Below are positions 1 through 11,754 of a stretch of DNA of 64,000 nucleotides, one piece after another (the first letter of the stretch is position 1; each line of letters begins with the position of its first letter). The notes beneath the pieces are model-generated. The model was not told the DNA's origin. It was given only the letters and a program-made list of their open reading frames with translations, and ran no database searches. A program made the translations under genes and the position numbers. The stretch is from an uncultured Bacteroidaceae bacterium (GTDB lineage Bacteria > Bacteroidota > Bacteroidia > Bacteroidales > Bacteroidaceae): NCBI GenBank assembly GCA_905233765.1, contig CAJOCU010000005.1, forward strand, positions 31,811 to 95,810, read 5' to 3'.

Positions 1-792
1 GGCTTCGTTCATGTCGTGGGTTATGAGCGTCACGGCATTCTCGTTGGAGGAGACGTAGCAAGCCTGTTCATCTTTCAGTGTATGGAAGACGTATCTGTAG
101 TCCTTGGCGTTGGTAAAGACGAGCGGGAAGAGGTCTATGGTCCAGATGGGTTGTGACTGAAGGGATTTTGGATAGGAAATCCGATATCGGCTTTCTTGGA
201 TGTCGTAGTCGCAGAGGGTCAGGGGGTGCAGTGATTGGAGGAGTTTGATAAGGCGTGGCTCCAGTTGTGTGACGACATCGCGATAGATGTTCTCGGAGAG
301 TGTTGTGCTATGGCCTCGATATTCGTTTCTGATCTGAACGATGCTGGGTGTTCGTTTGTCGCCTAGGAGGATGTTTTTGTGTTTCTCCAGTAGGTTCTCT
401 TGAAACGCTTGTGCTAGGGTGTTGTCCGGCAGGTGTTTGATGGCTGCAAGTAGGAGTGGATTCAGGAGATCGGCCAGCCAGTCGCCGAGGGAGAGTGGGC
501 GCTTCAGGTCGATTTTATTGACATAGGTTTCCAGGACGGCTTGCACTTGTGGGGTCTCCGTTGCTTTCTCCTGCAACAGTCGCAAGAAGATAAATGAAAC
601 GAAGGGTGTGGCGATCTCAAAGAAATCGAGAACGTGGTTCATGGCCTTGCCATATTGTCCCTGTTGGATGGCAGTCATAGCCTTTTGGACAGGGTATGCC
701 AGGGTGTAGGGCAGTTTGGCCATGGACTGTTCGAGGAGCGTTTGGTAGGCCAGTGTCTCGTTTTCGGAGTATTGATTGAGAAATAGTGGCAT
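1..792 (-). CDS. hypothetical protein, N-terminal 264 codons only (gene runs off the left edge)
   Basis: Absent from the ORF track because it has no stop in the window. Reading the reverse complement from the ATG at 792-790 gives an open frame to position 1 (MPLFLNQYSENETLAYQTLLEQSMAKLPYTLAYPVQKAM...ITHDMNEA). A TATTTTTG box lies about 30 nt upstream. No family recognised by eye. Confidence 0.6.
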   Translation of the reverse strand, partial: MPLFLNQYSENETLAYQTLLEQSMAKLPYTLAYPVQKAMTAIQQGQYGKAMNHVLDFFEIATPFVSFIFLRLLQEKATETPQVQAVLETYVNKIDLKRPLSLGDWLADLLNPLLLAAIKHLPDNTLAQAFQENLLEKHKNILLGDKRTPSIVQIRNEYRGHSTTLSENIYRDVVTQLEPRLIKLLQSLHPLTLCDYDIQESRYRISYPKSLQSQPIWTIDLFPLVFTNAKDYRYVFHTLKDEQACYVSSNENAVTLITHDMNEA

Positions 793-901: not shown

Positions 902-2224
902 ATGGAACCGTTGCACCAACATATTGCTTTCCTGTGTGGACATTTTAAGGTCTCTGGGGCCCCTTCTTCGAAGGCGTTGCAGGGTCTGGGATGGGAGAGG
1001 TTCAATCTCCCGGAGAACGTGAGAAGGATAGAGAAAAGGTTTTTCTATCCAGAATACGTGGATTTCTGCTATGCTGATGCCTCGGGCAAGAGTTGCACCA
1101 GGTATGTGAAGCATGTTGACGAGGAGTTGGAGATCAGCGTAAAGGAGAAGGTCATCCGTTTTGGTGTGAAGGAGATCACGCTCTATCTGATGCCATTTAG
1201 GATGGCGATGTTCTCGATTCATATTGAGCAGACGACGAACGACTTGGACGACTGTACGGCGTTGCTTTTCAGCCTTCGCTCCATTGACTATTACACGGAA
1301 GCGCACGGTGCGTTTGTGGAGAAGGCGATACGACCATTCATGGACGTGTTCGAAGTCCTGACGGGTGCGAAGGCGATGAGCTACTCGGAGCTGATAGACA
1401 ATGGTAACAAGTTGCGTATCTTTCAGATTGTCAATACGATGGATGCGGACATGGCGGCATGGACAGAGGCAGATAAGGACAAGGTGCTGTATGAGTTGGC
1501 GACAGTGTCGAAGATCACGAGGCCTGGGGAGGTGGATGACTACAGCGCTTCGGCGGCATATCTGGAGAAGATCATAGAGCGCAGTAAGATCTCGGTGTTC
1601 CGTAACTGGAGTGGTCTGGCGTTAATGGACACGTTTACGATTCATGCTTTTGGTGTGTCTGTGAGGTTTGTCAATAACTGGGTTGACAGTTACTTCAGGA
1701 TGATTTATATCCATAGTATTTTCCAGAAGAGTTATCTGTTCAACCTGAATATACGTTTCCGGAACTCTTTGGCTCGCTCGTCGGCTTCGTGGAAGTCGAA
1801 GCTTCGAAACCTGCATATACAAGGAACGAACGTTGGTCAGTTGGTGGAGGAGTATGAATCGTTTGAGCAGAAGTGCTGTTTTCACAAGATTTCCTATAAT
1901 TTCCTGCCGCTGGAAATTGCCGCCAGCATTGACAAGGGGCTGGAGATTCAGGAGGAGATGGCGCAGCTATACAAGATGATGGAGAAAGAGAAGACCCGCC
2001 GCGACGAGGCTAACGACAAGATGGTGAACACGCTGCTGTTCAGTCTCTCGTTGCTGACGCTCTTCTCGGCCATTTGGGATATCAGTTGTCTGTTGGACCA
2101 GATGTATCCTTTTGCCGAGTATTTGGGCGGTCAGCCGTTGGGCTATCGGACCGTTGCATTGTTGTTGTTGTTGGGCGTCAGTGTCCTGCTGCTGGTTATC
2201 TATCGGAGGAAGCGGGTGGAGTGA
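902..2224 (+). CDS. hypothetical membrane protein with a soluble N-domain, a helical stalk and two C-terminal TM helices (CorA-like topology, no GMN motif)
   Basis: Taken from ORF 776..2224, with the start moved to MEPLHQH at 902 because the promoter box lies inside the longer ORF. The C-terminus reads NTLLFSLSLLTLFSAIWDISCLL, loop, TVALLLLLGVSVLLLVIYRRKR. It converges on the NRPS 3-prime end and overlaps it by 29 nt. Confidence 0.6.
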   Translation: MEPLHQHIAFLCGHFKVSGAPSSKALQGLGWERFNLPENVRRIEKRFFYPEYVDFCYADASGKSCTRYVKHVDEELEISVKEKVIRFGVKEITLYLMPFRMAMFSIHIEQTTNDLDDCTALLFSLRSIDYYTEAHGAFVEKAIRPFMDVFEVLTGAKAMSYSELIDNGNKLRIFQIVNTMDADMAAWTEADKDKVLYELATVSKITRPGEVDDYSASAAYLEKIIERSKISVFRNWSGLALMDTFTIHAFGVSVRFVNNWVDSYFRMIYIHSIFQKSYLFNLNIRFRNSLARSSASWKSKLRNLHIQGTNVGQLVEEYESFEQKCCFHKISYNFLPLEIAASIDKGLEIQEEMAQLYKMMEKEKTRRDEANDKMVNTLLFSLSLLTLFSAIWDISCLLDQMYPFAEYLGGQPLGYRTVALLLLLGVSVLLLVIYRRKRVE

Positions 2225-5200
2225 AGAAGTCGAAGCCGACGATGGTATCTACGAAGCGGTGGACGTAGTCGGCAGCGGTGGTGGGCCACTGGAAGCCGAG
2301 GCGATAGAGCACCTGCGTAGTGTATTCGTTGTCGGCCTCTATCCAACGCGTCTTATGACCAATGCCCATGTCGTAGGCCATCAGCGGACGTAACAGGGTG
2401 ACGAGGTCGGGATTCTCCATCATCTTCTCTAATGCCTGTTGATATTCCTCGTTCTCTACACGCTTTAGCGTAATGCCTGCCTCGGAAAAGCCTGTGAGGA
2501 TATCGCTGAGGAACTGGCGATGGGTGTTCGAGGGATGGAACACCATGCACTCTTTCGGTGTCTGTGCCAACAGCATAATGGCGTGGGCCACCTCGTCGAT
2601 GGGGGAGAACTCGAAACGCTGGTCGAGGGCTTCGTAGGGCACCATACCTATCACGACATAGGCACGCAACTTGGCCAGGAAGTTGTTGGTGTTGAAGTTG
2701 ATTTGGAACTCACCATCCTTCTGACGTGCCGACAGGTTGCCCACACGCATGATTTTGGCATTCAACCCATGGTTAGCAATGGCGTCAAGCACCAACTCCT
2801 CGGCCTTGTACTTCGAATAGACGTACTTGTTGGCATCGATATTCTGCCCGATATCAAGCAGTTGTTCTGTCAACTTCACCTCAGGCCCTGGCACGTTGTC
2901 GACGCTGATGCCTGCAATGCTGTTCGTGGAGATATGAATCAGGCGTGAACCTGTGCGCAGGCAGAAGGTGATGAGGTGGCGCACCGACTCAATGTTCACC
3001 ATTTCTATGTCGTTGCCCGCAGAGAAATGCTTCACGTTGGCTACGCAGTTGATGACCGTTAAGGCCCCACCCCCGCCCCCTCCCCTGTTAGGGAGGGGAG
3101 CATTGTCTAGGGCATTGGGCTGTGTGACCTCTGCTGCGAAGGCGGTGATGCGCTCGCCAAAATGCTGGAAGGCCTCTGTCTTACCGAAGTAATAGAAGTA
3201 CATCGTCTTCAGACGGCTCGTGGCCTCCTCGTCGCCTTTCGCGCGGATAGGACAGAGGATGTGCCCCTCGTAGTTCGTCAACAGCTCGTTCAAGATATGG
3301 ATCCCGAGATAACCCGTAGCCCCTGTCAGCAGCACATCGCCAATAGGCTGACGTTTTCCATTGTGGAATGAAGAGAGGGTGTTCTTTGTGAGGATGGAAG
3401 GAGCCCCCCCCACGGCCCCCGAGGGGGCTTCTATTGTTGCGTTGTCAGAGGACATTTGTATAGTGTCCCCCTCGGGGGACGACAGGGGGGCTCTCACAAA
3501 TGCAGCCAACGCCTTGGGTGTCTTCAGATTGAACAGGTCGTTGAAGACAATCTGCACGCCGTGTTTGCTGGCTTCCACGATGACCTTGATGGCATTGATG
3601 CTGGTGCCGCCAATCTCGAAGAAGTTGTCCGTGGCGCCTACCTCCTGAATCTTCAGTACGTCGGAGAAGATGGTGCAGAAAAGTTCTTCCATCTCGCCCT
3701 TTGGTGCCTCATACTCGGTGGCACGCTTCATCTCTGGTACAGGCAGTGCCTTGCGGTTGATTTTACCGTTGGGCGTCATCGGCATCACCTCCATCTTCAT
3801 GTAGACATCGGGCACCATATAGTCGGCCAGAGACGAGGCTTTGAGGGCGGTGCAGATGTCTTCGTCTCCGATGGCAGAACCATCGGACACAGTATAGTAA
3901 AGCACCAGGTGCTCGTTGCCCTGCACCTTGCGCACCTCGGCAGCGGCCTGACGGATGCCTTCGATGTTGAGGGCCTTGTTCTCGATTTCGCCCAGCTCGA
4001 TGCGGAAGCCGCGCAGTTTCACCTGGGTGTCGATACGACCGAGGTATTCAAGCTGTCCCTCGTCGTTCCAGCGGCAGAGGTCTCCGGTGTGGTACATCCG
4101 CACGGGACGTCCCCAGCGGTCTTCCTTCACGAACGGACAATCGACGAACGATGTTGCAGTGCGCTCCGGCAGACGCCAATAGCCGCGCCCCACCTGAATA
4201 CCGGCAAAGCATAGTTCACCGGCTACGCCCTGTGGCACGAGATTGCCAGCTGTATCCACGATGAAGTTCCAGTTGTTGGCTACGCTTTGGCCGATAGGAA
4301 TATTCTCCACACGACGGCCAGGAGCGATGGCGTAGTAAGAGGTGTCGTCGGTACACTCCGTAGGACCATAGACATTGATGATCTCGATGTGGTCGCTATA
4401 GACACCGTCCATCTTCTCGCCGCCACCCGTGGTGAAGCGGATAGGCAGGTCGTCGAAGGCATTGAGCAGCAGACTGGTCATCGCGGTGGAATAGCCGCCC
4501 CCCGTACACTGATGGTCGATGAGGAACTGGCGTATCTGTGCAAGGTCCTTGCGAATCTCCGTCGGCATGACATGGAACGAGCCACCCAGCGTCAGCACAG
4601 GATACATATCCTCGATGTGGGCATCGAACGAGAACGAGCGGTGTCCGCTGATGCGGTCGGCAGCCGTCAGTTTCTCCATATCGATGACCACAGCAATGAA
4701 GTTACGCAAGCCGGCTTGATGGAGCATGGCGCCCTTGGGTTTGCCTGTGGAGCCGGAGGTGTAGATCATATAGGCAAGGCCATCGGGAGAAGATAAATCA
4801 AGGGGTGTGTCGGCGGGTAAACCGCCGACCGCACTGGCCATGAAGTCATCAATGAAGAAAGTACGGGCGGCAGCGGTGCTGAAGTCGCCCTCGGCCTGCT
4901 TTGCTTCAAGGACGGCATGAGTGGTAATCAGCACTTTCGACTCCGAATTCTCCAGCATATAACTCAAGCGTTCGTTGGGGTATTCGAAGTCCAGCGGCGT
5001 ATAAGCGGCACCGGCCTTGTGGATTGACAGCACGGCCAACGGGAACTCCTTGAAACGGTCGAGCATGACGCAGACGAAATCATTGGGCTGTACGCCGAAA
5101 TCTATCAGCTGGTGCGCCAATGCATTCGAGTAATTATCCATTTCAGCGTAGGTCAACTGACTGTCCCTATCCACCACAGCGGGGGCATCGGGCGTTCGCT

Positions 5201-8200
5201 TGGCCTGTTCGGTGAAGAGGTTGGCAAAGGTCTTACTAATGTCGATGTCGATTTCCTTTCCCGTACCTATTTTAATAATGCGCTGGGCCTCCTCGTCGCT
5301 GACAATGCTAATACTGGTCAAGGCTGCATCGGGCTTTGCTATCATCCGTTCTACCGTCACCTTCACGGCATCTGCGAGACTCTGCATCAAACGGGCAGAG
5401 TATTTTCCGTTGTCATATTCTACACAGACACATGCCTGACCATTGATGTCGCGGATGAAGAAAGTGATGGGGAACTTGGGTACTTGAAGTTCCAGACCTT
5501 CTATCTCCAAGGGTGTACCCTGACAGACGTATTGGCTGATCATGCCCAATTGATAAACAAGCTGAATCTCAGCCGTCAAACCGTAGTCGGCAGCAATCTG
5601 TGCAAACGGATAGTTCTCGTGGCGAAGGGTCTCGTCGAAGTTTTCGCTGACCTCCTGCAGGAACTCCTTCACACTTTGTTTTCCGATAGTAGCACTCAGA
5701 GCCAGCGTATTGACAAACATGCCCACGGTGTTGCGGATGTGTAGGTTGGAGCGACCGCTTGAGACGGTGGTAATGCAGACCTGCTCGTTGTTGGCAAATC
5801 GCGACAAAGAATAGTAAATGGCCGACAGAATCAAATGGGCCGGCGTGATATGGTTGCCACGACAGAAGGCATCGATAGCCTCGAAATCAAGAGAAGAGAT
5901 GGCTTTGCCGATTGTTCCCTTCGAGGGGTTCGGCAGGTCTGGACGCACCTCCGTAGCGGTTTCTACTACGGACAGCCGTTCTTTAAAGAAATCCTTGGCA
6001 GCCTGATAGTCTGCCCCACCTTCTGCAACTTTTTCGGCTGTCACATAGGCCGCATAATTCTGGTCTTCATCCTCAATGGAATAACCATTGAGCACACTGC
6101 ATAGCTGCTGGAGGAAGATATCAACAGAACCACCATCGAATATCAGGTGGTGCACATCCATCATCAGATAGGTCTGCCGTTCTGTAGTTACTATCTCAAA
6201 ACGATAGAGCGGACCCTTGTTGAGGTCGAAAGGACGTACAAAGTCGTGCTTATATGATGACAACTCCTCCTCGCTCATCTGCTTCACAGGAATCTCCACA
6301 GCCTGCTCCAAATCAACGGTCTGTACGATGCCCTCGTCTCCGTTACCGAAGTGAGCGGTCATCTCAGGATGCACCTTCACAAGCGTCCTGAGGGCCTCTG
6401 CCAATTGGGCAGTATCCGTTTGCTGCGGGAAAGCAATCTTGTTAGGAATGTTATAGAGCGTAGTCTCCGGATTCTTCAAACAGTCGAAATAGACACCTGT
6501 CTGGGCGTAGGACAGGGGGACAGCCTCACCCCCATCCCCTCTCCAGTAGAGGGGCGTAGATAGATTCTGTTCTTGAGAGTGACCACTCCCCTCGCCCTTT
6601 GTGAGGTTTCTCCATATCTCATTTTCAATGCTCTGCAGGGTGCCGCTTTTGACAAGAGACTTTGAATCTAATGTCACGCCATAGCGCTTATTCACCTGAA
6701 TGGCCAATTTAATGGCTGAGATAGAGGTGAGTCCGGCATAGCCCAAAACAGTTGTGATGCCGAAATCCGTGTTTCCAACGATGGCCGCAATCATCTCATG
6801 CAGTTCCTGCTCGAGGACGTTTAAGGGAGCCTGCTCGGTTTGTTGCGATGACATCGCAACAGACTTGACGGGTTTCGGCAGGGCGCGTTTGTTCACCTTC
6901 TGGTTTTGGTTCAATGGAATCTTGTCAATCTGCATCGTCACTGCAGGCACCATGTAGGGCGGTTTCTGATCAAGGATAAAGCTATTTAAAGCTTCGGTGT
7001 CCACCTGTTGGTCGCTGACGATATAGGCCGCAATGAACTTGCCGCCATTCTCGTCATCGAAGGCCTGCACCGTGGCATCCTTGATGCCGGGAAACTCGCG
7101 AATGACAGCTTCCACCTCCTTCAGCTCAATGCGGAAACCGCGAATCTTCACCTGGCCATCCCTGCGGCCGATGAACTGCAGGTTGCCGTCGGGCAGCCAG
7201 CGCACGATGTCGCCAGTCTTATATACCCGAGCATATTTTTCATTGTCTGTAAAGGGATTCTGAATAAACACTTCTGCGTTCTTGTCCGGTCGGTTCAGGT
7301 ATCCGAGTGCCACTTGCGGTCCGGCTACCCACATTTCACCCATAGCCCCCACAGGCAGACGACGTCCCTGTTGATCGACTACATAAAGCCGCACATTGTC
7401 CAAAGGTTTGCCAATGGGGACATCCGTATCTTTCTTTGTGATAGGATAGACAGTGATGATGATGGTGGCCTCCGTAGGACCATAGCCGTTGTGCAACTGA
7501 TAGCCTTGAGGCGGAGCGATACTGGCCAGTTTCTCGCCAGCCACCGAGAGATGCATCAAGGAGTGATTCTCAATGTTCGTTGCAAACTGATAGCCCACCT
7601 GTGTAGTCATGAAGGTATGGGTGATGTGTTCGCGCTCCAGGTATTCGTTGAGCGACACAAGATCCAGGCGCAGTTCCTCAGGGATGATGTGCACGGTGGC
7701 ACCGCGCGTCAGTGGCGGATAGATACCCTCCTGATGGACATCGAAACCATAGCTGGCATATTCAGCCACATTATGCTCTGGCTTTAGGTCGTAATATTTC
7801 CAGTACCAGTTGCAGTAGCATACCAGATTGGCATGTGTCAGTTGGCAACCTTTGGGAATGCCTGTCGAGCCGGAGGTATAAAGGAGGATAAAAAGAGAGT
7901 CGGGTTTCGGTTCCGTAGGCTGCGACAGAGTCGCAGCTAACGAAAGCAGGTCCTTGGTCAGCAGCACTTCGCCCTGATATTCGTCAACGAGGTCACGCAA
8001 CTCCTCGTCGGCAATGAGCAACTTCGCGCCGGCATCTTTCATCATGAAGTTCAGGCGTTCCTTCGGATAGCTGGGATCCAGCGGCTGATAGGCACAGCCA
8101 GCCTTCAGCACGCCGAGTGAGGCAATAGCCATCCACTCGCAGCGAGGAATGATGACAGAAACGGCATCGCCCACGCCCAGTCCTTTGGATACGATATAGC

Positions 8201-9614
8201 CTGCAATGCGGTCGCTGATGTCATCTACCTCGGCATAGGTGTAACGATGGTCCTTGAAAACGACGGCTTCGGCATCTGGTGTGGCCTTGGCCTGCCGGCG
8301 GAACAGCGACACCACCGTCTGGGTGTCATCATAGGGACGGTCTGTATCGTTGAACGAGTCGAGAAGCTCCACCTGCGAAGCTGTGGTAATATTGATGTCG
8401 CTCAGTTTTTCTTCACTGAGGAACCCCGCTACCACCGCCTCATAGCTTTCCATCAACTGGGTGATAAGCAACTCGCTATACATATTGGCGCTGTATTCTG
8501 CCTCCACACAATAATGGCCGTCCTTCGTGTATGCCTTCAGATAGAGCGGCATCTCGCGGGTGTTGTTGTTCAGACGTCGGGCTGTCATCGGCTTGCCGCA
8601 TAGTTCCAGACTATCGAACAGGGGTCCGTGCCAGACAAAGAGTGTGGCAGCCTGCAGTCCCAAGTCTGCGGCTACGTCAGCGTATGCGTAGGCCTCGTGC
8701 TGGCGCTGCCCCATCATTTGCCGCTCCCCAGCCCTCAGGAAGTCGAGCACGGTGGTGTCGTTGTCAAACTTCGTATAGACGGGCAATGTTCTTACCAACA
8801 TGGCTACCGAGTGGGCCAGACGCTTATCGGCTCGCCCATTGTGTATCGTGTTGAACAGCACCTGCTGCTCGTTGTTGTATTTCGCCAGCAGAAAGCTGTA
8901 GGCTGCCGTGAAGAAAGTGCTCTTAAAGATGTCGTGCTCCTTGCAATAGGCTTCGACAGCATCGATGGCTACATTCATCGTCCGCGTCAGCAGACCCTCT
9001 TGAGGCTCTTCTCCGTCCAAATCGGGCAGCAACGGTGAATAGCAGTCGCCGCAATCGAAGTTTTCTGCATACCATTTTTTGTCCTCCTCAAAGGCCGGAC
9101 TCTCGCGCTGCGCAGCCTCAGCCTGGGCTACCTCGGCCAAAGTCAATGCCTCGGCCTCTAACGTTTCGCCACGATAGGCTTTCTCGATGTCGGCCAGCAG
9201 CACCTTTCTCGATGTGCCGTCGCTGATGATATGGTGGATGTCCTGCAGCAGATAATAGTGCGCAGCATCCTTTAGCAGACGGATTCGGAACAAACGGTCA
9301 TGATACAGGTCGAAGGGCTTGACGAAACTGTCGATGGTCATCTGTGGGTTGTCAACGGTCTCGACCTCGAGACTGAATGTCTCGCTATCGCAGATGGTTT
9401 GCACGGCATCGCCCTGCTCGTTCAACTCGATGCGCGTAAACAGCGTCGGGTGGGCCTTCACGGCAGCCTCGATGGCCGCCGTCAGTTTTTCCTCGTCCAA
9501 ACTGGCGTCTAAGATGTAAACATAGGGTATGTTATAACAAGCCTCTCCCTGGTGGTTGACACATTCCACGTAGAGACCATACTGCGTTTTAGTTAATGGC
9601 GCGGAAATCTTCAT
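2196..9614 (-). CDS. bimodular non-ribosomal peptide synthetase, domain order C-A-T-C-A-T-R (terminal thioester reductase)
   Basis: 2472 aa ORF. C1 motif HHIISDG is at about 9216-9236. A1 core LLYTSGSTGIPKG is at about 7858-7896, and A1 also has NGYGPTE and KVNKRALP. T1 reads LGYAGLTSISAIKL at about 6720. C2 motif HHLIFDGGS is at about 6131-6157. A2 core MIYTSGSTGKPKG is at about 4741-4775, and A2 also has NVYGPTE and NGKINRKALP. T2 reads FFEIGGTSINAIKV at about 3600. The R domain has LLTGATGYLGIHIL at about 3301-3340 and YSKYKAEE. No TE domain is present. Confidence 0.95.
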   Translation of the reverse strand: MKISAPLTKTQYGLYVECVNHQGEACYNIPYVYILDASLDEEKLTAAIEAAVKAHPTLFTRIELNEQGDAVQTICDSETFSLEVETVDNPQMTIDSFVKPFDLYHDRLFRIRLLKDAAHYYLLQDIHHIISDGTSRKVLLADIEKAYRGETLEAEALTLAEVAQAEAAQRESPAFEEDKKWYAENFDCGDCYSPLLPDLDGEEPQEGLLTRTMNVAIDAVEAYCKEHDIFKSTFFTAAYSFLLAKYNNEQQVLFNTIHNGRADKRLAHSVAMLVRTLPVYTKFDNDTTVLDFLRAGERQMMGQRQHEAYAYADVAADLGLQAATLFVWHGPLFDSLELCGKPMTARRLNNNTREMPLYLKAYTKDGHYCVEAEYSANMYSELLITQLMESYEAVVAGFLSEEKLSDINITTASQVELLDSFNDTDRPYDDTQTVVSLFRRQAKATPDAEAVVFKDHRYTYAEVDDISDRIAGYIVSKGLGVGDAVSVIIPRCEWMAIASLGVLKAGCAYQPLDPSYPKERLNFMMKDAGAKLLIADEELRDLVDEYQGEVLLTKDLLSLAATLSQPTEPKPDSLFILLYTSGSTGIPKGCQLTHANLVCYCNWYWKYYDLKPEHNVAEYASYGFDVHQEGIYPPLTRGATVHIIPEELRLDLVSLNEYLEREHITHTFMTTQVGYQFATNIENHSLMHLSVAGEKLASIAPPQGYQLHNGYGPTEATIIITVYPITKKDTDVPIGKPLDNVRLYVVDQQGRRLPVGAMGEMWVAGPQVALGYLNRPDKNAEVFIQNPFTDNEKYARVYKTGDIVRWLPDGNLQFIGRRDGQVKIRGFRIELKEVEAVIREFPGIKDATVQAFDDENGGKFIAAYIVSDQQVDTEALNSFILDQKPPYMVPAVTMQIDKIPLNQNQKVNKRALPKPVKSVAMSSQQTEQAPLNVLEQELHEMIAAIVGNTDFGITTVLGYAGLTSISAIKLAIQVNKRYGVTLDSKSLVKSGTLQSIENEIWRNLTKGEGSGHSQEQNLSTPLYWRGDGGEAVPLSYAQTGVYFDCLKNPETTLYNIPNKIAFPQQTDTAQLAEALRTLVKVHPEMTAHFGNGDEGIVQTVDLEQAVEIPVKQMSEEELSSYKHDFVRPFDLNKGPLYRFEIVTTERQTYLMMDVHHLIFDGGSVDIFLQQLCSVLNGYSIEDEDQNYAAYVTAEKVAEGGADYQAAKDFFKERLSVVETATEVRPDLPNPSKGTIGKAISSLDFEAIDAFCRGNHITPAHLILSAIYYSLSRFANNEQVCITTVSSGRSNLHIRNTVGMFVNTLALSATIGKQSVKEFLQEVSENFDETLRHENYPFAQIAADYGLTAEIQLVYQLGMISQYVCQGTPLEIEGLELQVPKFPITFFIRDINGQACVCVEYDNGKYSARLMQSLADAVKVTVERMIAKPDAALTSISIVSDEEAQRIIKIGTGKEIDIDISKTFANLFTEQAKRTPDAPAVVDRDSQLTYAEMDNYSNALAHQLIDFGVQPNDFVCVMLDRFKEFPLAVLSIHKAGAAYTPLDFEYPNERLSYMLENSESKVLITTHAVLEAKQAEGDFSTAAARTFFIDDFMASAVGGLPADTPLDLSSPDGLAYMIYTSGSTGKPKGAMLHQAGLRNFIAVVIDMEKLTAADRISGHRSFSFDAHIEDMYPVLTLGGSFHVMPTEIRKDLAQIRQFLIDHQCTGGGYSTAMTSLLLNAFDDLPIRFTTGGGEKMDGVYSDHIEIINVYGPTECTDDTSYYAIAPGRRVENIPIGQSVANNWNFIVDTAGNLVPQGVAGELCFAGIQVGRGYWRLPERTATSFVDCPFVKEDRWGRPVRMYHTGDLCRWNDEGQLEYLGRIDTQVKLRGFRIELGEIENKALNIEGIRQAAAEVRKVQGNEHLVLYYTVSDGSAIGDEDICTALKASSLADYMVPDVYMKMEVMPMTPNGKINRKALPVPEMKRATEYEAPKGEMEELFCTIFSDVLKIQEVGATDNFFEIGGTSINAIKVIVEASKHGVQIVFNDLFNLKTPKALAAFVRAPLSSPEGDTIQMSSDNATIEAPSGAVGGAPSILTKNTLSSFHNGKRQPIGDVLLTGATGYLGIHILNELLTNYEGHILCPIRAKGDEEATSRLKTMYFYYFGKTEAFQHFGERITAFAAEVTQPNALDNAPLPNRGGGGGGALTVINCVANVKHFSAGNDIEMVNIESVRHLITFCLRTGSRLIHISTNSIAGISVDNVPGPEVKLTEQLLDIGQNIDANKYVYSKYKAEELVLDAIANHGLNAKIMRVGNLSARQKDGEFQINFNTNNFLAKLRAYVVIGMVPYEALDQRFEFSPIDEVAHAIMLLAQTPKECMVFHPSNTHRQFLSDILTGFSEAGITLKRVENEEYQQALEKMMENPDLVTLLRPLMAYDMGIGHKTRWIEADNEYTTQVLYRLGFQWPTTAADYVHRFVDTIVGFDFFTPPASSDR
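3063..3101. repeat. GC-rich palindromic unit, in-frame inside the NRPS reductase domain (encodes PLPNRGGGGGGA)
   Basis: ggccccacccccgccccctcccctgttagggaggggagc. A C-rich arm, a GTTA loop and a G-rich arm. It aligns with the units at 50622, 43471(rc), 6519 and 43400. Confidence 0.7.
3401..3493. repeat. 93 bp MITE-like composite with ~28 bp terminal inverted repeats, in-frame in the NRPS T2-R linker
   Basis: The left end is gagccccccccacggcccccgagggggc. The reverse complement of the right end is gagcccccctgtcgtcccccgagggggac, about 24 of 28 identical. The core is a 36 bp AT-richer stretch. 93 nt equals 31 codons (APLSSPEGDTIQMSSDNATIEAPSGAVGGAPS). Confidence 0.7.
6511..6606. repeat. GC-rich repeat unit(s), in-frame in the NRPS T1-C2 linker
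   Basis: 6519 gacagcctcacccccatcccctctccagtagaggggcg aligns with the family. A second partial C-rich unit, ccactcccctcgccctttgtgagg, is at 6583-6606. Together they encode LTKGEGSGHSQEQNLSTPLYWRGDGGEA. Confidence 0.55.
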
Positions 9615-9617
9615 ATG

Positions 9618-10964
9618 TCAATTTTTACACTCTCTTAATTCAAACTTAACCTTGTATTTCTTGTGGAGGACGAAGATGGCTACCATCTCGATGAGGTAGG
9701 CCAGCAGATAGCTGAACCACAAATAGTGGGGCGCCATGTACGACATGATCCACAGCACGGGAATGACCGTCAGCGACAGTGCAAAGGAAATGAACAGCGC
9801 TATCTGGTGGTAGTTGTAGAGCTTATAGACGATCATGATGGTGTAGATGTAGCAGAACGGAATGAGACTGACGGCAAAGATGCGCAGCGCGTAGCAACCC
9901 TCGGCAATCATGTCTGCCTCGTAGGCTCCGAATAGATGCACGATCATCTCCGGCCATATCCACACACAGACGCAGGTGATGAGCATTGCCACGGTGATGA
10001 AGCCAAAAGATTTACGCTGTACCAGCATGAAAGCCTCATCGTCGCCCTTGCCCACCTGAATGGAGCCAAACGACTGGATGGTGCGGCAGACTCCCCCAAG
10101 GAAGAGGTTGTATATCTGCAACAGGTACATACAGATGGCGAAAGCGAAAACACCCGCCCGCCCCAGTGCCGAAACGACGATGTGGTTAGAGCAGAACAGC
10201 AGCACTGTCAGACAGACGGAAGCAATGGCCAGCGGTGCGCCTTGCGACACGATATCTTTCAGAGTAGAAATAAAACTTACCGGCCGCGCTGGCTTGTTCA
10301 GGGTGAGCCGCAGCGTGTTCTTGGCTGAGAAAAAATGGAACGCCATCATGGCGATGCCCACCACGTGGCCGATGACGGTAGCCGTAGAACTACTGGCAAT
10401 ACCCCATCCGAAATACTTGATGAACACAACGTCGAGCACCAGATGGACGGCATTATCGACGAAAATCGAGACCGACACCAGCTTCGGACTGCCATCGACA
10501 CTGACCATCGTATCAATACCCCACATCAGCAGATAGAATGGTGCACCAAGCATCATCACCCGCAGATAGGCCTTAGTGGGCTCAAAGAGTTCCTCGCTGC
10601 TGCACAGCAACCTGGTGGAGGCATCGGGGAAGAACAGACCGAAGGCCGAGATAATGAGACCCGCCACCAGACAGGCCATCATCGATACGGTGAAGATGTA
10701 CGAGGCGCGCTGCGTGTCCTTCTTCCCCAGCTGAATACCCACCAGCATGCCGGCACCCGTCGCCAGCAACATGTTGAGGGTAAACAGAAACTGTATCATG
10801 GTACGCGATATGTTGACGGCACTCACTGAGTCCTCGTCAATCAGGTTACCCACGATGATGGCGTCAATGACATTGCCCAGACAGGCCGAGAGGGCAATGA
10901 GAATGGACGACCATAAGAAACGCCAGAACTGGAGATTAAACTCCTTTTGCTCTTTTGTATTCAT
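9618..10964 (-). CDS. MATE family efflux transporter
   Basis: A 12-TM-like hydrophobic protein (ORF 9618..11003). The start is set at MNTKEQKEF (ATG at 10964). Its stop lies 3 nt before the NRPS start, so the two are likely co-transcribed. Confidence 0.8.
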   Translation of the reverse strand: MNTKEQKEFNLQFWRFLWSSILIALSACLGNVIDAIIVGNLIDEDSVSAVNISRTMIQFLFTLNMLLATGAGMLVGIQLGKKDTQRASYIFTVSMMACLVAGLIISAFGLFFPDASTRLLCSSEELFEPTKAYLRVMMLGAPFYLLMWGIDTMVSVDGSPKLVSVSIFVDNAVHLVLDVVFIKYFGWGIASSSTATVIGHVVGIAMMAFHFFSAKNTLRLTLNKPARPVSFISTLKDIVSQGAPLAIASVCLTVLLFCSNHIVVSALGRAGVFAFAICMYLLQIYNLFLGGVCRTIQSFGSIQVGKGDDEAFMLVQRKSFGFITVAMLITCVCVWIWPEMIVHLFGAYEADMIAEGCYALRIFAVSLIPFCYIYTIMIVYKLYNYHQIALFISFALSLTVIPVLWIMSYMAPHYLWFSYLLAYLIEMVAIFVLHKKYKVKFELRECKN

Positions 10965-10981
10965 CTTGTATTCGTGTTTAC

Positions 10982-11176
10982 TCAAAGAAACCGAATGCAG
11001 CAATCTGTCTCAACATCTGGATGATGTATTCGCTGAGGGTATCGCTCCAGTGGAAACCGAGACGGCGCAGGACTCAACTTGATGATACACGGAATATTAT
11101 ACTGCATCATCTGCGGATATTTCAGGCAGTCGTAAAGAACGCCCAACTGTGACTGGAGCAAAGGATAGGTTTTCAT
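10982..11176 (-). pseudogene. truncated remnant of an NRPS condensation-domain N-terminus (64 codons)
   Basis: [34 protein letters not shown] aligns with the start of C2 in the neighbouring NRPS (VPLSYAQTGVYFDCLKNPETTLYNIPNKIAF) and with C1 (APLTKTQYGLYVECVNHQGEACYNIPYVYIL). It then degenerates and stops. Its ATG overlaps the folE stop (ATGA). Confidence 0.5.
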
Positions 11177-11754
11177 GTGTTCTCTTTGAAAAGCTGCTGG
11201 AGGAATTCCTGGCGCACCTGATTTTGCTCGAAAGCACCGATGTGGTGCATCGTGGTTGTGTAGGCCTCTTGTTTGGCGACCCCACGCATCTGCATGCAGA
11301 GGTGTCGTGCTTCGACGACGACCATGACACCGAGAGGGTTGAGTGCTTCCTGGATGCAATGAGCAATCTGCTGGGTCATGCGCTCCTGCACCTGCAGGCG
11401 ATGGCTGAAGGTGTTGACGATGCGTGGAAGCTTTGACAGCCCTGTGATTTCGCCATTGGGTATGTAGGCGATGTGCACCTTCCCGAAGAAGGGTAGGAGA
11501 TGGTGCTCACAAAGAGAGTAGAATTCGATGTCGCGCACGACGACCATGTTGTGGTAATTCTCCTTGAAGAGAGCTGAACGCAGGATGGCTATGGGGTCCT
11601 CGTCGTAGCCTCGCGTGAGTTCCAGCCATGCACGTGCTACGCGAATGGGCGTCTTGAGGAGGCCTTCGCGTGAGGGATTCTCGCCGAGAAGTTGAAGGAT
11701 GTCCGCGTAGTGTTCGGCGAGCGCATCCTGGCGTTGCTGCTTAGTAATAGACAT
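11173..11754 (-). CDS. folE: GTP cyclohydrolase I
   Basis: 193 aa. Contains [20 protein letters not shown] and [15 protein letters not shown], which are typical FolE motifs. Confidence 0.9.

Follow-up and report, generated by a model that had tools for sequence, protein, structure and literature searches.

The aureusimine synthetase of Staphylococcus aureus, AusA/PznA, is a dimodular nonribosomal peptide synthetase (NRPS) in which adenylation (A), carrier (T) and condensation (C) domains are arranged as A-T-C-A-T-R, and its terminal reductase (R; structures 4F6C and 4F6L) releases a dipeptide aldehyde. A likewise dimodular NRPS, with a homologous thioester reductase of the short-chain dehydrogenase/reductase type, is encoded beside a MATE efflux transporter and downstream of folE in a 64,000-nt stretch of contig CAJOCU010000005.1 (the window, meaning the whole stretch, to which coordinates refer). 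It differs from AusA in possessing an N-terminal C domain, in being paired with a MATE pump instead of a phosphopantetheinyl transferase (PPTase; AusB), in its A-domain codes and in coming from a different phylum. Small R-terminated NRPSs from gut anaerobes reportedly also make up the gut-commensal dipeptide-aldehyde family of Guo et al. 2017 (Cell 168:517), and a further example, the rup/ruminopeptin pathway of Ruminococcus bromii, is said to have been described by Schneider & Balskus in 2018. The window NRPS shares with these systems the (C)-A-T-C-A-T-R architecture in a gut-associated anaerobe, a likeness of architecture and habitat, whereas its own family belongs to the Bacteroidota, is apparently ruminant-associated, is linked to MATE genes and has an invariant terminal A domain. 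The chemistry of AusA has been described, as has that of the gut dipeptide aldehydes, which inhibit proteases, with the target set by the P1 residue and the aldehyde stabilised by N-acyl tails (PMC8210680, PMC12327764). Leupeptin and livipeptin of Streptomyces, short N-capped peptides with a basic P1 aldehyde, would be functional analogues if the second A domain of the window NRPS (A2) is cationic in specificity, but their biosynthetic logic differs, with a C-minus A-T-R enzyme and a tRNA-dependent transferase (PMC10548850). The closest solved structure to the terminal T2-R didomain is the carrier-reductase (PCP-R) didomain of Mru_0351 (6VTJ/6VTZ) from the rumen methanogen Methanobrevibacter ruminantium M1, and the rumen habitat is common to both. 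Mru_0351 is an archaeal, multi-modular NRPS of which only the terminal didomain is comparable (the crystallised PCP-R covers residues 3701-4187), and its product is likewise uncharacterised (PMC8024701).

Taking AusA and the dipeptide-aldehyde pathways of gut anaerobes as models (PMC8210680, PMC12327764), we favour on balance the reading that the window holds a functional two-gene cassette of an uncultured ruminant-gut member of the Prevotellaceae, which probably makes an exported N-capped dipeptide aldehyde. The domains A1 and A2 would load two alpha-amino acids onto T1 and T2, and the N-terminal C domain (C1) would cap the first residue with an acyl group from primary metabolism, as acyl-CoA or bound to an acyl carrier protein (ACP), there being no linked acyl-activating gene. 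C2 would then join the dipeptide, and R would use NAD(P)H to free it, with an aldehyde at the C-terminus after one reduction or an alcohol after two; the MATE protein would export the product. All family members would share the terminal residue and differ in the residues before it; a cationic terminal residue would make for a protease inhibitor of the leupeptin type. A first-pass annotation of this DNA had proposed an N-acylated dipeptide aldehyde or alcohol; the reductase terminus fits that proposal, and we keep the product as a prediction by analogy.

Domain layout, reductase and transporter

A 2472-codon open reading frame (ORF) encodes the synthetase, and the features of the cassette are as follows (aa, amino acids).

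2196-9614, minus strand: NRPS gene, 2472 aa, C-A-T-C-A-T-R, from ORF call, Pfam and motifs
8325-9614, minus strand: C1, N-terminal condensation domain, aa 1-430, HHIISDG at aa 127-133
6879-8303, minus strand: A1, adenylation domain, aa 438-912, code DVE(F/Q)SAGIIK
6612-6830, minus strand: T1, carrier domain, aa 929-1001, Ser963 in GLTS
5253-6521, minus strand: C2, elongation condensation domain, aa 1032-1454, HHLIFDG
3744-5234, minus strand: A2, adenylation domain, aa 1461-1957, acidic code DAE(G/A)TGVDDK, invariant in the family
3486-3707, minus strand: T2, carrier domain, aa 1970-2043, Ser2005 in GGTS
2199-3335, minus strand: R, terminal NAD(P)H thioester reductase, aa 2094-2472, with TGATGYLG, HIST and YVYSK
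9618-10964, minus strand: MATE efflux transporter, 448 aa (Pfam MatE, NCBIfam MATE)

Pfam identified two Condensation, two AMP-binding and two PP-binding domains in the NRPS, followed by a C-terminal NAD_binding_4/Epimerase match at aa 2094-2354. The second C-domain motif, HHLIFDG, lies at aa 1155, the A3, A5, A7, A8 and A10 motif sets are complete in both A domains, and the R domain contains TGATGYLG (aa 2097), HIST and the Y..SK motif within YVYSKYKAE (aa 2264). Domain profiles and catalytic motifs thus bear out the two complete modules and terminal reductase of the first-pass annotation. The FD(V/A)H.E segment that it had noted at the pocket entrance of both A domains was located at aa 624-629 (FDVHQE) and aa 1663-1668 (FDAHIE).

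The T2-R region aligned end to end with the PCP-R structure of Mru_0351 (6VTJ, E 1.6e-73), and the R domain of AusA (4F6L) was the next structure match (E 1e-36). Pfam NAD_binding_4 matched the R domain with an E value of 9.7e-30, and the R motifs are retained in all of the 120 closest homologs. These matches and the catalytic motifs mark the terminal domain as a genuine NRPS thioester reductase, as had been predicted. The best NCBIfam model for the whole NRPS was AusA (NF047350), aligned over C2-A2-T2-R; its score of 1071 bits is far below the equivalog cut-off of 2500 bits, and orthology to AusA is therefore ruled out. Alcohols are the products of R domains with the same fold in MxaA and Mycobacterium tuberculosis Nrp, and sequence gives no rule that separates two-electron from four-electron reduction in NRPS R domains (PMC8024701). 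The window R domain could accordingly be read as performing a four-electron reduction, the exported product then being an N-capped dipeptide alcohol without an electrophilic warhead. MxaA and the M. tuberculosis Nrp are indeed matched, but weakly (E 2.6e-15 and 4.9e-9), and the closest characterised R domain is that of the aldehyde-forming AusA; we consider the alcohol unlikely.

Two local features of this region were observed. The T2-R linker (window 3401-3493) contains an imperfect inverted repeat of 34 nt that encloses a run of eight G residues on the coding strand, and the R domain has a PNRGGGGGGAL loop (window 3066-3083) that is absent from close homologs, whose loops are variable at this point.

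The NRPS gene is judged functional, since dN/dS is low in every domain, the mark of purifying selection. Relative to a homolog 86% identical (L158:4183-13077 compared with window 2196-10964), dN/dS was 0.125 overall and 0.07-0.15 in each of C1, A1, T1, C2, A2, T2 and R. Catalytic motifs are retained in 117-120 of 120 homologs, an identical NRPS protein is found in several public assemblies, and a second allele from the same species (P0121) differs by 15 substitutions and has no frameshifts. Synonymous divergence (dS) from the L158 homolog is mosaic, at 0.08 in the MATE gene, 0.14 in C1 and 0.5-1.7 from A1 through R, which points to recombination inside the cassette and fits the module shuffling seen in the pocket codes.

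The MATE gene stops at 9618-9620 and the NRPS ATG lies at 9614-9612, which leaves exactly 3 nt between them, the spacing given in the first-pass annotation. The longest MATE ORF (9618-11003) starts from a TTG; gene callers and homology prefer the ATG at 10964. Pfam scans of window ORFs of at least 150 aa found no PPTase, MbtH, acyl ligase or ACP and no integrase or transposase, the other ORFs being ordinary housekeeping genes. Regular expressions for MbtH and Sfp-type PPTase motifs, the check that was applied to ORFs below 150 aa, had no match in a six-frame translation of the window. The absence of PPTase, MbtH and acyl-ligase genes reported earlier for the window is upheld by these searches. 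A scan for sigma-70-type promoters and terminators, a model ill-suited to Bacteroidota, gave nothing above chance, and searches for Rfam families and tRNAs found none.

N-terminal condensation domain and adenylation pockets

C1 is only 24% identical to C2 of the same protein. Among the 120 closest homologs, its identity to the N-terminal C domains of di- and tri-modular relatives is approximately 64%, irrespective of the module that comes next, but only 24-28% to any internal C domain; all internal C domains are nearer to C2. The HHxxxDG motif is kept in the N-terminal C domain of 117 of these homologs. Together with the dN/dS of 0.15 in this domain, the comparison marks C1 as a dedicated, selected and position-specific class.

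The first-pass annotation called C1 a starter-type domain. This agrees with its position, as C1 stands before the first A domain and has no upstream T-domain partner, but its sequence is nearer to elongation domains. A profile built from 14 N-terminal C domains matched elongation C domains best (TycC6, E 3.9e-32; BacC, bacitracin synthase 3, E 5e-24), and its matches to the two solved lipoinitiation domains that served as proxies for starter C domains were weak (RzmA-Cs, E 8.5e-4; CDA-C1, E 6e-3). The single C1 sequence matched neither starter domain at E≤1e-3. Two possible partners for C1 were considered and rejected. In relatives with two synthetases, the upstream NRPS of the NRPS-MATE-NRPS order cannot hand its chain to C1, because it is itself a C-A-T-C-A-T-R enzyme that ends in its own reductase. 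The 1050-aa A-domain proteins found beside some relatives, considered as acyl-loading partners, are A-T-(C)-TE termination modules (TE, thioesterase) of a different, TE-type line. N-capping from an acyl donor of primary metabolism is, in our view, the most economical reading of C1.

If C1 does not acylate, the free dipeptide aldehyde would cyclise spontaneously to a dihydropyrazinone or pyrazinone, as in AusA. This outcome, to which we assign a low probability, draws on AusA as the best curated family match with a homologous R domain, on the dissimilarity of C1 to known lipoinitiation domains and on the lack of a linked acyl-activating gene. However, AusA has no N-terminal C domain, and the retention of HHxxxDG, the low dN/dS and the position-specific character of C1 all argue that this domain is catalytically used.

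We read the ten Stachelhaus positions of both A domains from MAFFT alignments to a PheA fragment that is 100% identical to 1AMU residues 234-526. Both domains have Asp235 and Lys517, and position 278 is alignment-dependent (F/Q in A1 and G/A in A2). Applied to unrelated NRPSs, the same extraction recovered canonical codes for Ser, Leu, Val, Thr, Cys and Gln, which indicates that the procedure is sound. Across one-, two-, three- and four-module enzymes alike, essentially every relative has the A2 code in its last module before R; the modules further upstream show at least eight different codes. Assignment of substrates by code was attempted and gave no match for A1 or A2, and neither code, nor sub-strings of them, was found in the literature searched; the substrates are left without a call. 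The A2 pocket has three acidic residues (Glu239, Asp330 and Asp331). MATE transporters are known for organic cations. From the acidic pocket and the exporter, our guess would be that the A2 substrate is cationic, Arg, Lys or Orn-like.

The code of A2 also occurs in internal modules of larger metagenome NRPSs of unrelated length (P0130 and P0137), so the building block is not confined to R-terminal modules. In some tri- and tetra-modular relatives (L016, L030, L034 and P0227), the first A domain lacks Asp235 (its codes include IPQISGVGMK and VPQFMGGGLK), and such enzymes probably prime themselves with a starter that is not an amino acid. Stand-alone C-A-T-R enzymes of approximately 1450 aa (L041-L044, L049-L063, L066 and L067) share the A2 code. 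In them the C domain belongs to the internal (C2) type, only approximately 24% identical to C1, and most have no MATE neighbour.

The cassette at folE and the scar of a second synthetase

The upstream border of the cassette is formed by folE and by two short remnants of another NRPS.

11173-11754, minus strand: folE (GTP cyclohydrolase I), last gene of a conserved NDK-M23-DUF1599-MauE-tpiA-SPOR-folE block
11075-11176, minus strand: relic of the 5' end of a deleted upstream NRPS, approximately 34 codons, whose ATG overlaps the folE stop (ATGA)
10978-11073, minus strand: relic of the 3' end of the same deleted NRPS, VLRRLGFHWSDTLSEYIIQMLRQIAAFGFFE followed by a stop, in a different frame from the 5' relic

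We compared this site with 80 metagenome contigs encoding FolE relatives (60-90% identity). SPOR lies upstream of folE in 75 of the 80, most of which also have tpiA, MauE and DUF1599. None of the 80 contigs, 63 of them with at least 1.5 kb of sequence downstream, has a MATE or NRPS gene by folE; conversely, none of 71 related NRPS loci, gathered from a scan of one genome per species, has folE, SPOR, tpiA or the window's downstream gene nearby. In the closest relatives, with TpiA 98-99% identical, similarity to the window stops exactly at folE, and the sequence downstream of their folE is not present in the window or in the 10 kb beyond it. FolE ends in ...LFKE-TAA in the relatives and in ...LFKENT-TGA in the window, which implies that the ancestral stop was replaced at the junction. 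The closest cassette, with an NRPS 86% identical at the amino acid level and a MATE protein in the same 90% cluster, stands in an unrelated neighbourhood, and nucleotide similarity to it begins at window position 10982, 18 nt ahead of the MATE start codon, and ceases at 2224, close to the NRPS stop. Since folE relatives lack the cassette, and since the closest cassette lies elsewhere with homology confined to the cassette, the NRPS and MATE genes behave as a relocating two-gene accessory unit, one that is met again in unrelated surroundings in many genomes of Prevotellaceae.

This refutes the alternative that the two genes are ancestral core genome at folE, which we regard as extremely unlikely. 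In its favour, one could cite the absence of any integrase, tRNA, att-like repeat or GC anomaly at the cassette, together with the operon-like overlap of the relic NRPS start with the folE stop. It would nevertheless have to accommodate the empty folE loci, including those of the relatives with near-identical TpiA, the related NRPS loci without folE, a closest cassette whose homology ends sharply at its edges in another context, and a folE stop codon that is altered in the window only. The comparison with close relatives that the first-pass annotation had suggested thus speaks against a universal core locus, the island being absent at folE in 80 of 80 contigs. As for its proposal of an acquired island, the accessory character stands, but marks of an insertion mechanism were not found: the search for att-like repeats or a second copy of the folE 3' end was negative, and an empty site with a matching far flank was not found among the closest folE relatives. 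In the closest of these (L078:1484-1568, TpiA 99%), the last 15 nt of folE, its stop and 12 further bases occur in 3.1 tandem copies of a 27-nt unit with 91% matches. This suggests a recombination-prone folE 3' end, and it is at this point that the cassette is joined in the window.

The island had been described simply as NRPS plus MATE, which is incomplete. The gap between folE and the MATE gene measures 208 nt, of which relic NRPS ends take up 199 nt; the upper coordinate of the locus in the first-pass annotation, 11176, is the ATG of the relic NRPS start. The 5' relic is 45% identical to residues 3-35 of the NRPS P0009; its identity to the corresponding C-domain motif reaches 58%. The 3' relic starts one base on, in another frame, and its approximately 32 codons align with the last 31 residues of family NRPSs. 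Among its best matches is the upstream NRPS of NRPS-MATE-NRPS loci (L001, 55%, the highest identity; L005, 48%), at whose stop codon it also ends, 13 nt ahead of the MATE start codon; the corresponding distance in L005 is 9 nt. The real sequence reached at best 39.7 bits and the highest of 200 shuffles 26.2, and the scar stretch is 99.6-100% identical in five independent assemblies. The relic N- and C-termini between folE and MATE thus identify the window locus as a reduced NRPS-MATE-NRPS cluster. By these alignments, it descends from a folE-NRPS-MATE-NRPS arrangement that lost its first synthetase in one deletion of approximately 7 kb. L023 has a comparable but larger relic, 103 C-terminal residues long.

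The scar bears on whether the locus could be in decay and have ceased to make a product. An upstream paralogous NRPS has been reduced to 199 nt and no PPTase is encoded in the window, which would suit decay; yet the 7.4-kb ORF is intact with all motifs present, dN/dS is approximately 0.1 in every domain, and identical or near-identical proteins without frameshifts recur in several independent metagenomes. We therefore judge decay very unlikely and retain the functional cassette with an N-capped dipeptide aldehyde as its probable product. Several observations weigh against that reading. The loss of the neighbouring NRPS shows that the locus is subject to erosion, and the window holds neither a PPTase gene nor an acyl donor gene. 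C1 is unlike the two solved lipoinitiation domains, and no family member has an observed product. The A1 and A2 codes match no assignable code, and Glu239 also occurs in the hydrophobic Val code of ACV synthetase (DFESTAAVYK), which leaves a cationic A2 substrate a guess. Finally, aldehyde and alcohol release are indistinguishable from sequence (PMC8024701).

An apparently ruminant-associated family

In a protein search, more than 100 clusters (90% identity threshold) matched the length of the window NRPS at 78-86% identity, and tri- and tetra-modular relatives were returned at 56-73%. Nearly all of the 71 related loci come from ruminant-gut metagenome-assembled genomes labelled Prevotella, Prevotellaceae or Bacteroidales, and the contigs with an identical NRPS belong, by sample and record names, to ruminant metagenome assemblies. 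The family size, this ruminant-associated distribution and the invariant acidic terminal A domain in relatives of one to four modules add to what the first-pass annotation had described. A MATE homolog (55-81% identical) adjoins the NRPS in 34 of the 71 loci. Layouts include MATE-NRPS, NRPS-MATE-NRPS (L001, L005, L011, L013 and L014), NRPS-NRPS-MATE and single-module C-A-T-R enzymes. A whole-library search with A2-T2-R was dominated by giant multi-module NRPSs, and the only named relative outside the family, one of ten matches looked up, was a Lachnospiraceae NRPS-R with 44% identity over A-T-R.

The Prevotellaceae rank with the most abundant bacteria of the rumen, and Prevotella count as one of its major proteolytic groups. 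Nitrogen efficiency in livestock is limited by rumen proteolysis and by the loss of ammonia. A broader proposal, which we put forward tentatively and consider rather unlikely as a whole, is that rumen Prevotellaceae encode a combinatorial set of MATE-exported, N-capped peptide aldehydes of one to four residues with one conserved, probably cationic, C-terminal aldehyde. Such leupeptin-like compounds would tune trypsin-like or cysteine-protease activity, and hence rumen protein breakdown, and would diversify by module swapping and by synthetase gain and loss. If it were true, widely exported inhibitors with a fixed P1 would offer a chemically tractable lever on rumen proteolysis, and the dipeptide-aldehyde story would extend from human-gut Clostridia to Bacteroidota. 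The family is also a natural experiment in NRPS evolution: its terminal module stays constant, its upstream modules are exchanged, its divergence is mosaic, and the deletion scar can be dated. As it stands, this is one uncharacterised NRPS cluster among the thousands, Prevotella included, already listed in rumen genome-mining surveys (PMC8241843), and the literature searched contains no paper connecting peptide aldehydes or pyrazinones with Prevotella.

Beyond the NRPS 3' end, a 440-aa gene on the plus strand (902-2224) overlaps it convergently by 29 nt. Neither this gene nor the start of a 1368-aa protein (1-792, minus strand) has a Pfam or NCBIfam match, and these genes adjoin none of the related cassettes. 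On the same contig, approximately 8 kb beyond the window start (L072:18996-21042), lies a gene for a protein of 1573 aa that combines Inhibitor_I69, Peptidase_C10 (streptopain-like cysteine protease), leucine-rich repeat and lectin domains. Its presence near the NRPS may be a coincidence, but would be notable if the product is a protease inhibitor. At the locus of an 83%-identical homolog (L159, 24990-26057 and 20057-20857), a sensor phosphatase and a broken SNF transporter sit between the MATE and NRPS genes, and the region 3-8 kb downstream of the NRPS contains an IS110-family transposase and a KilA-N gene.

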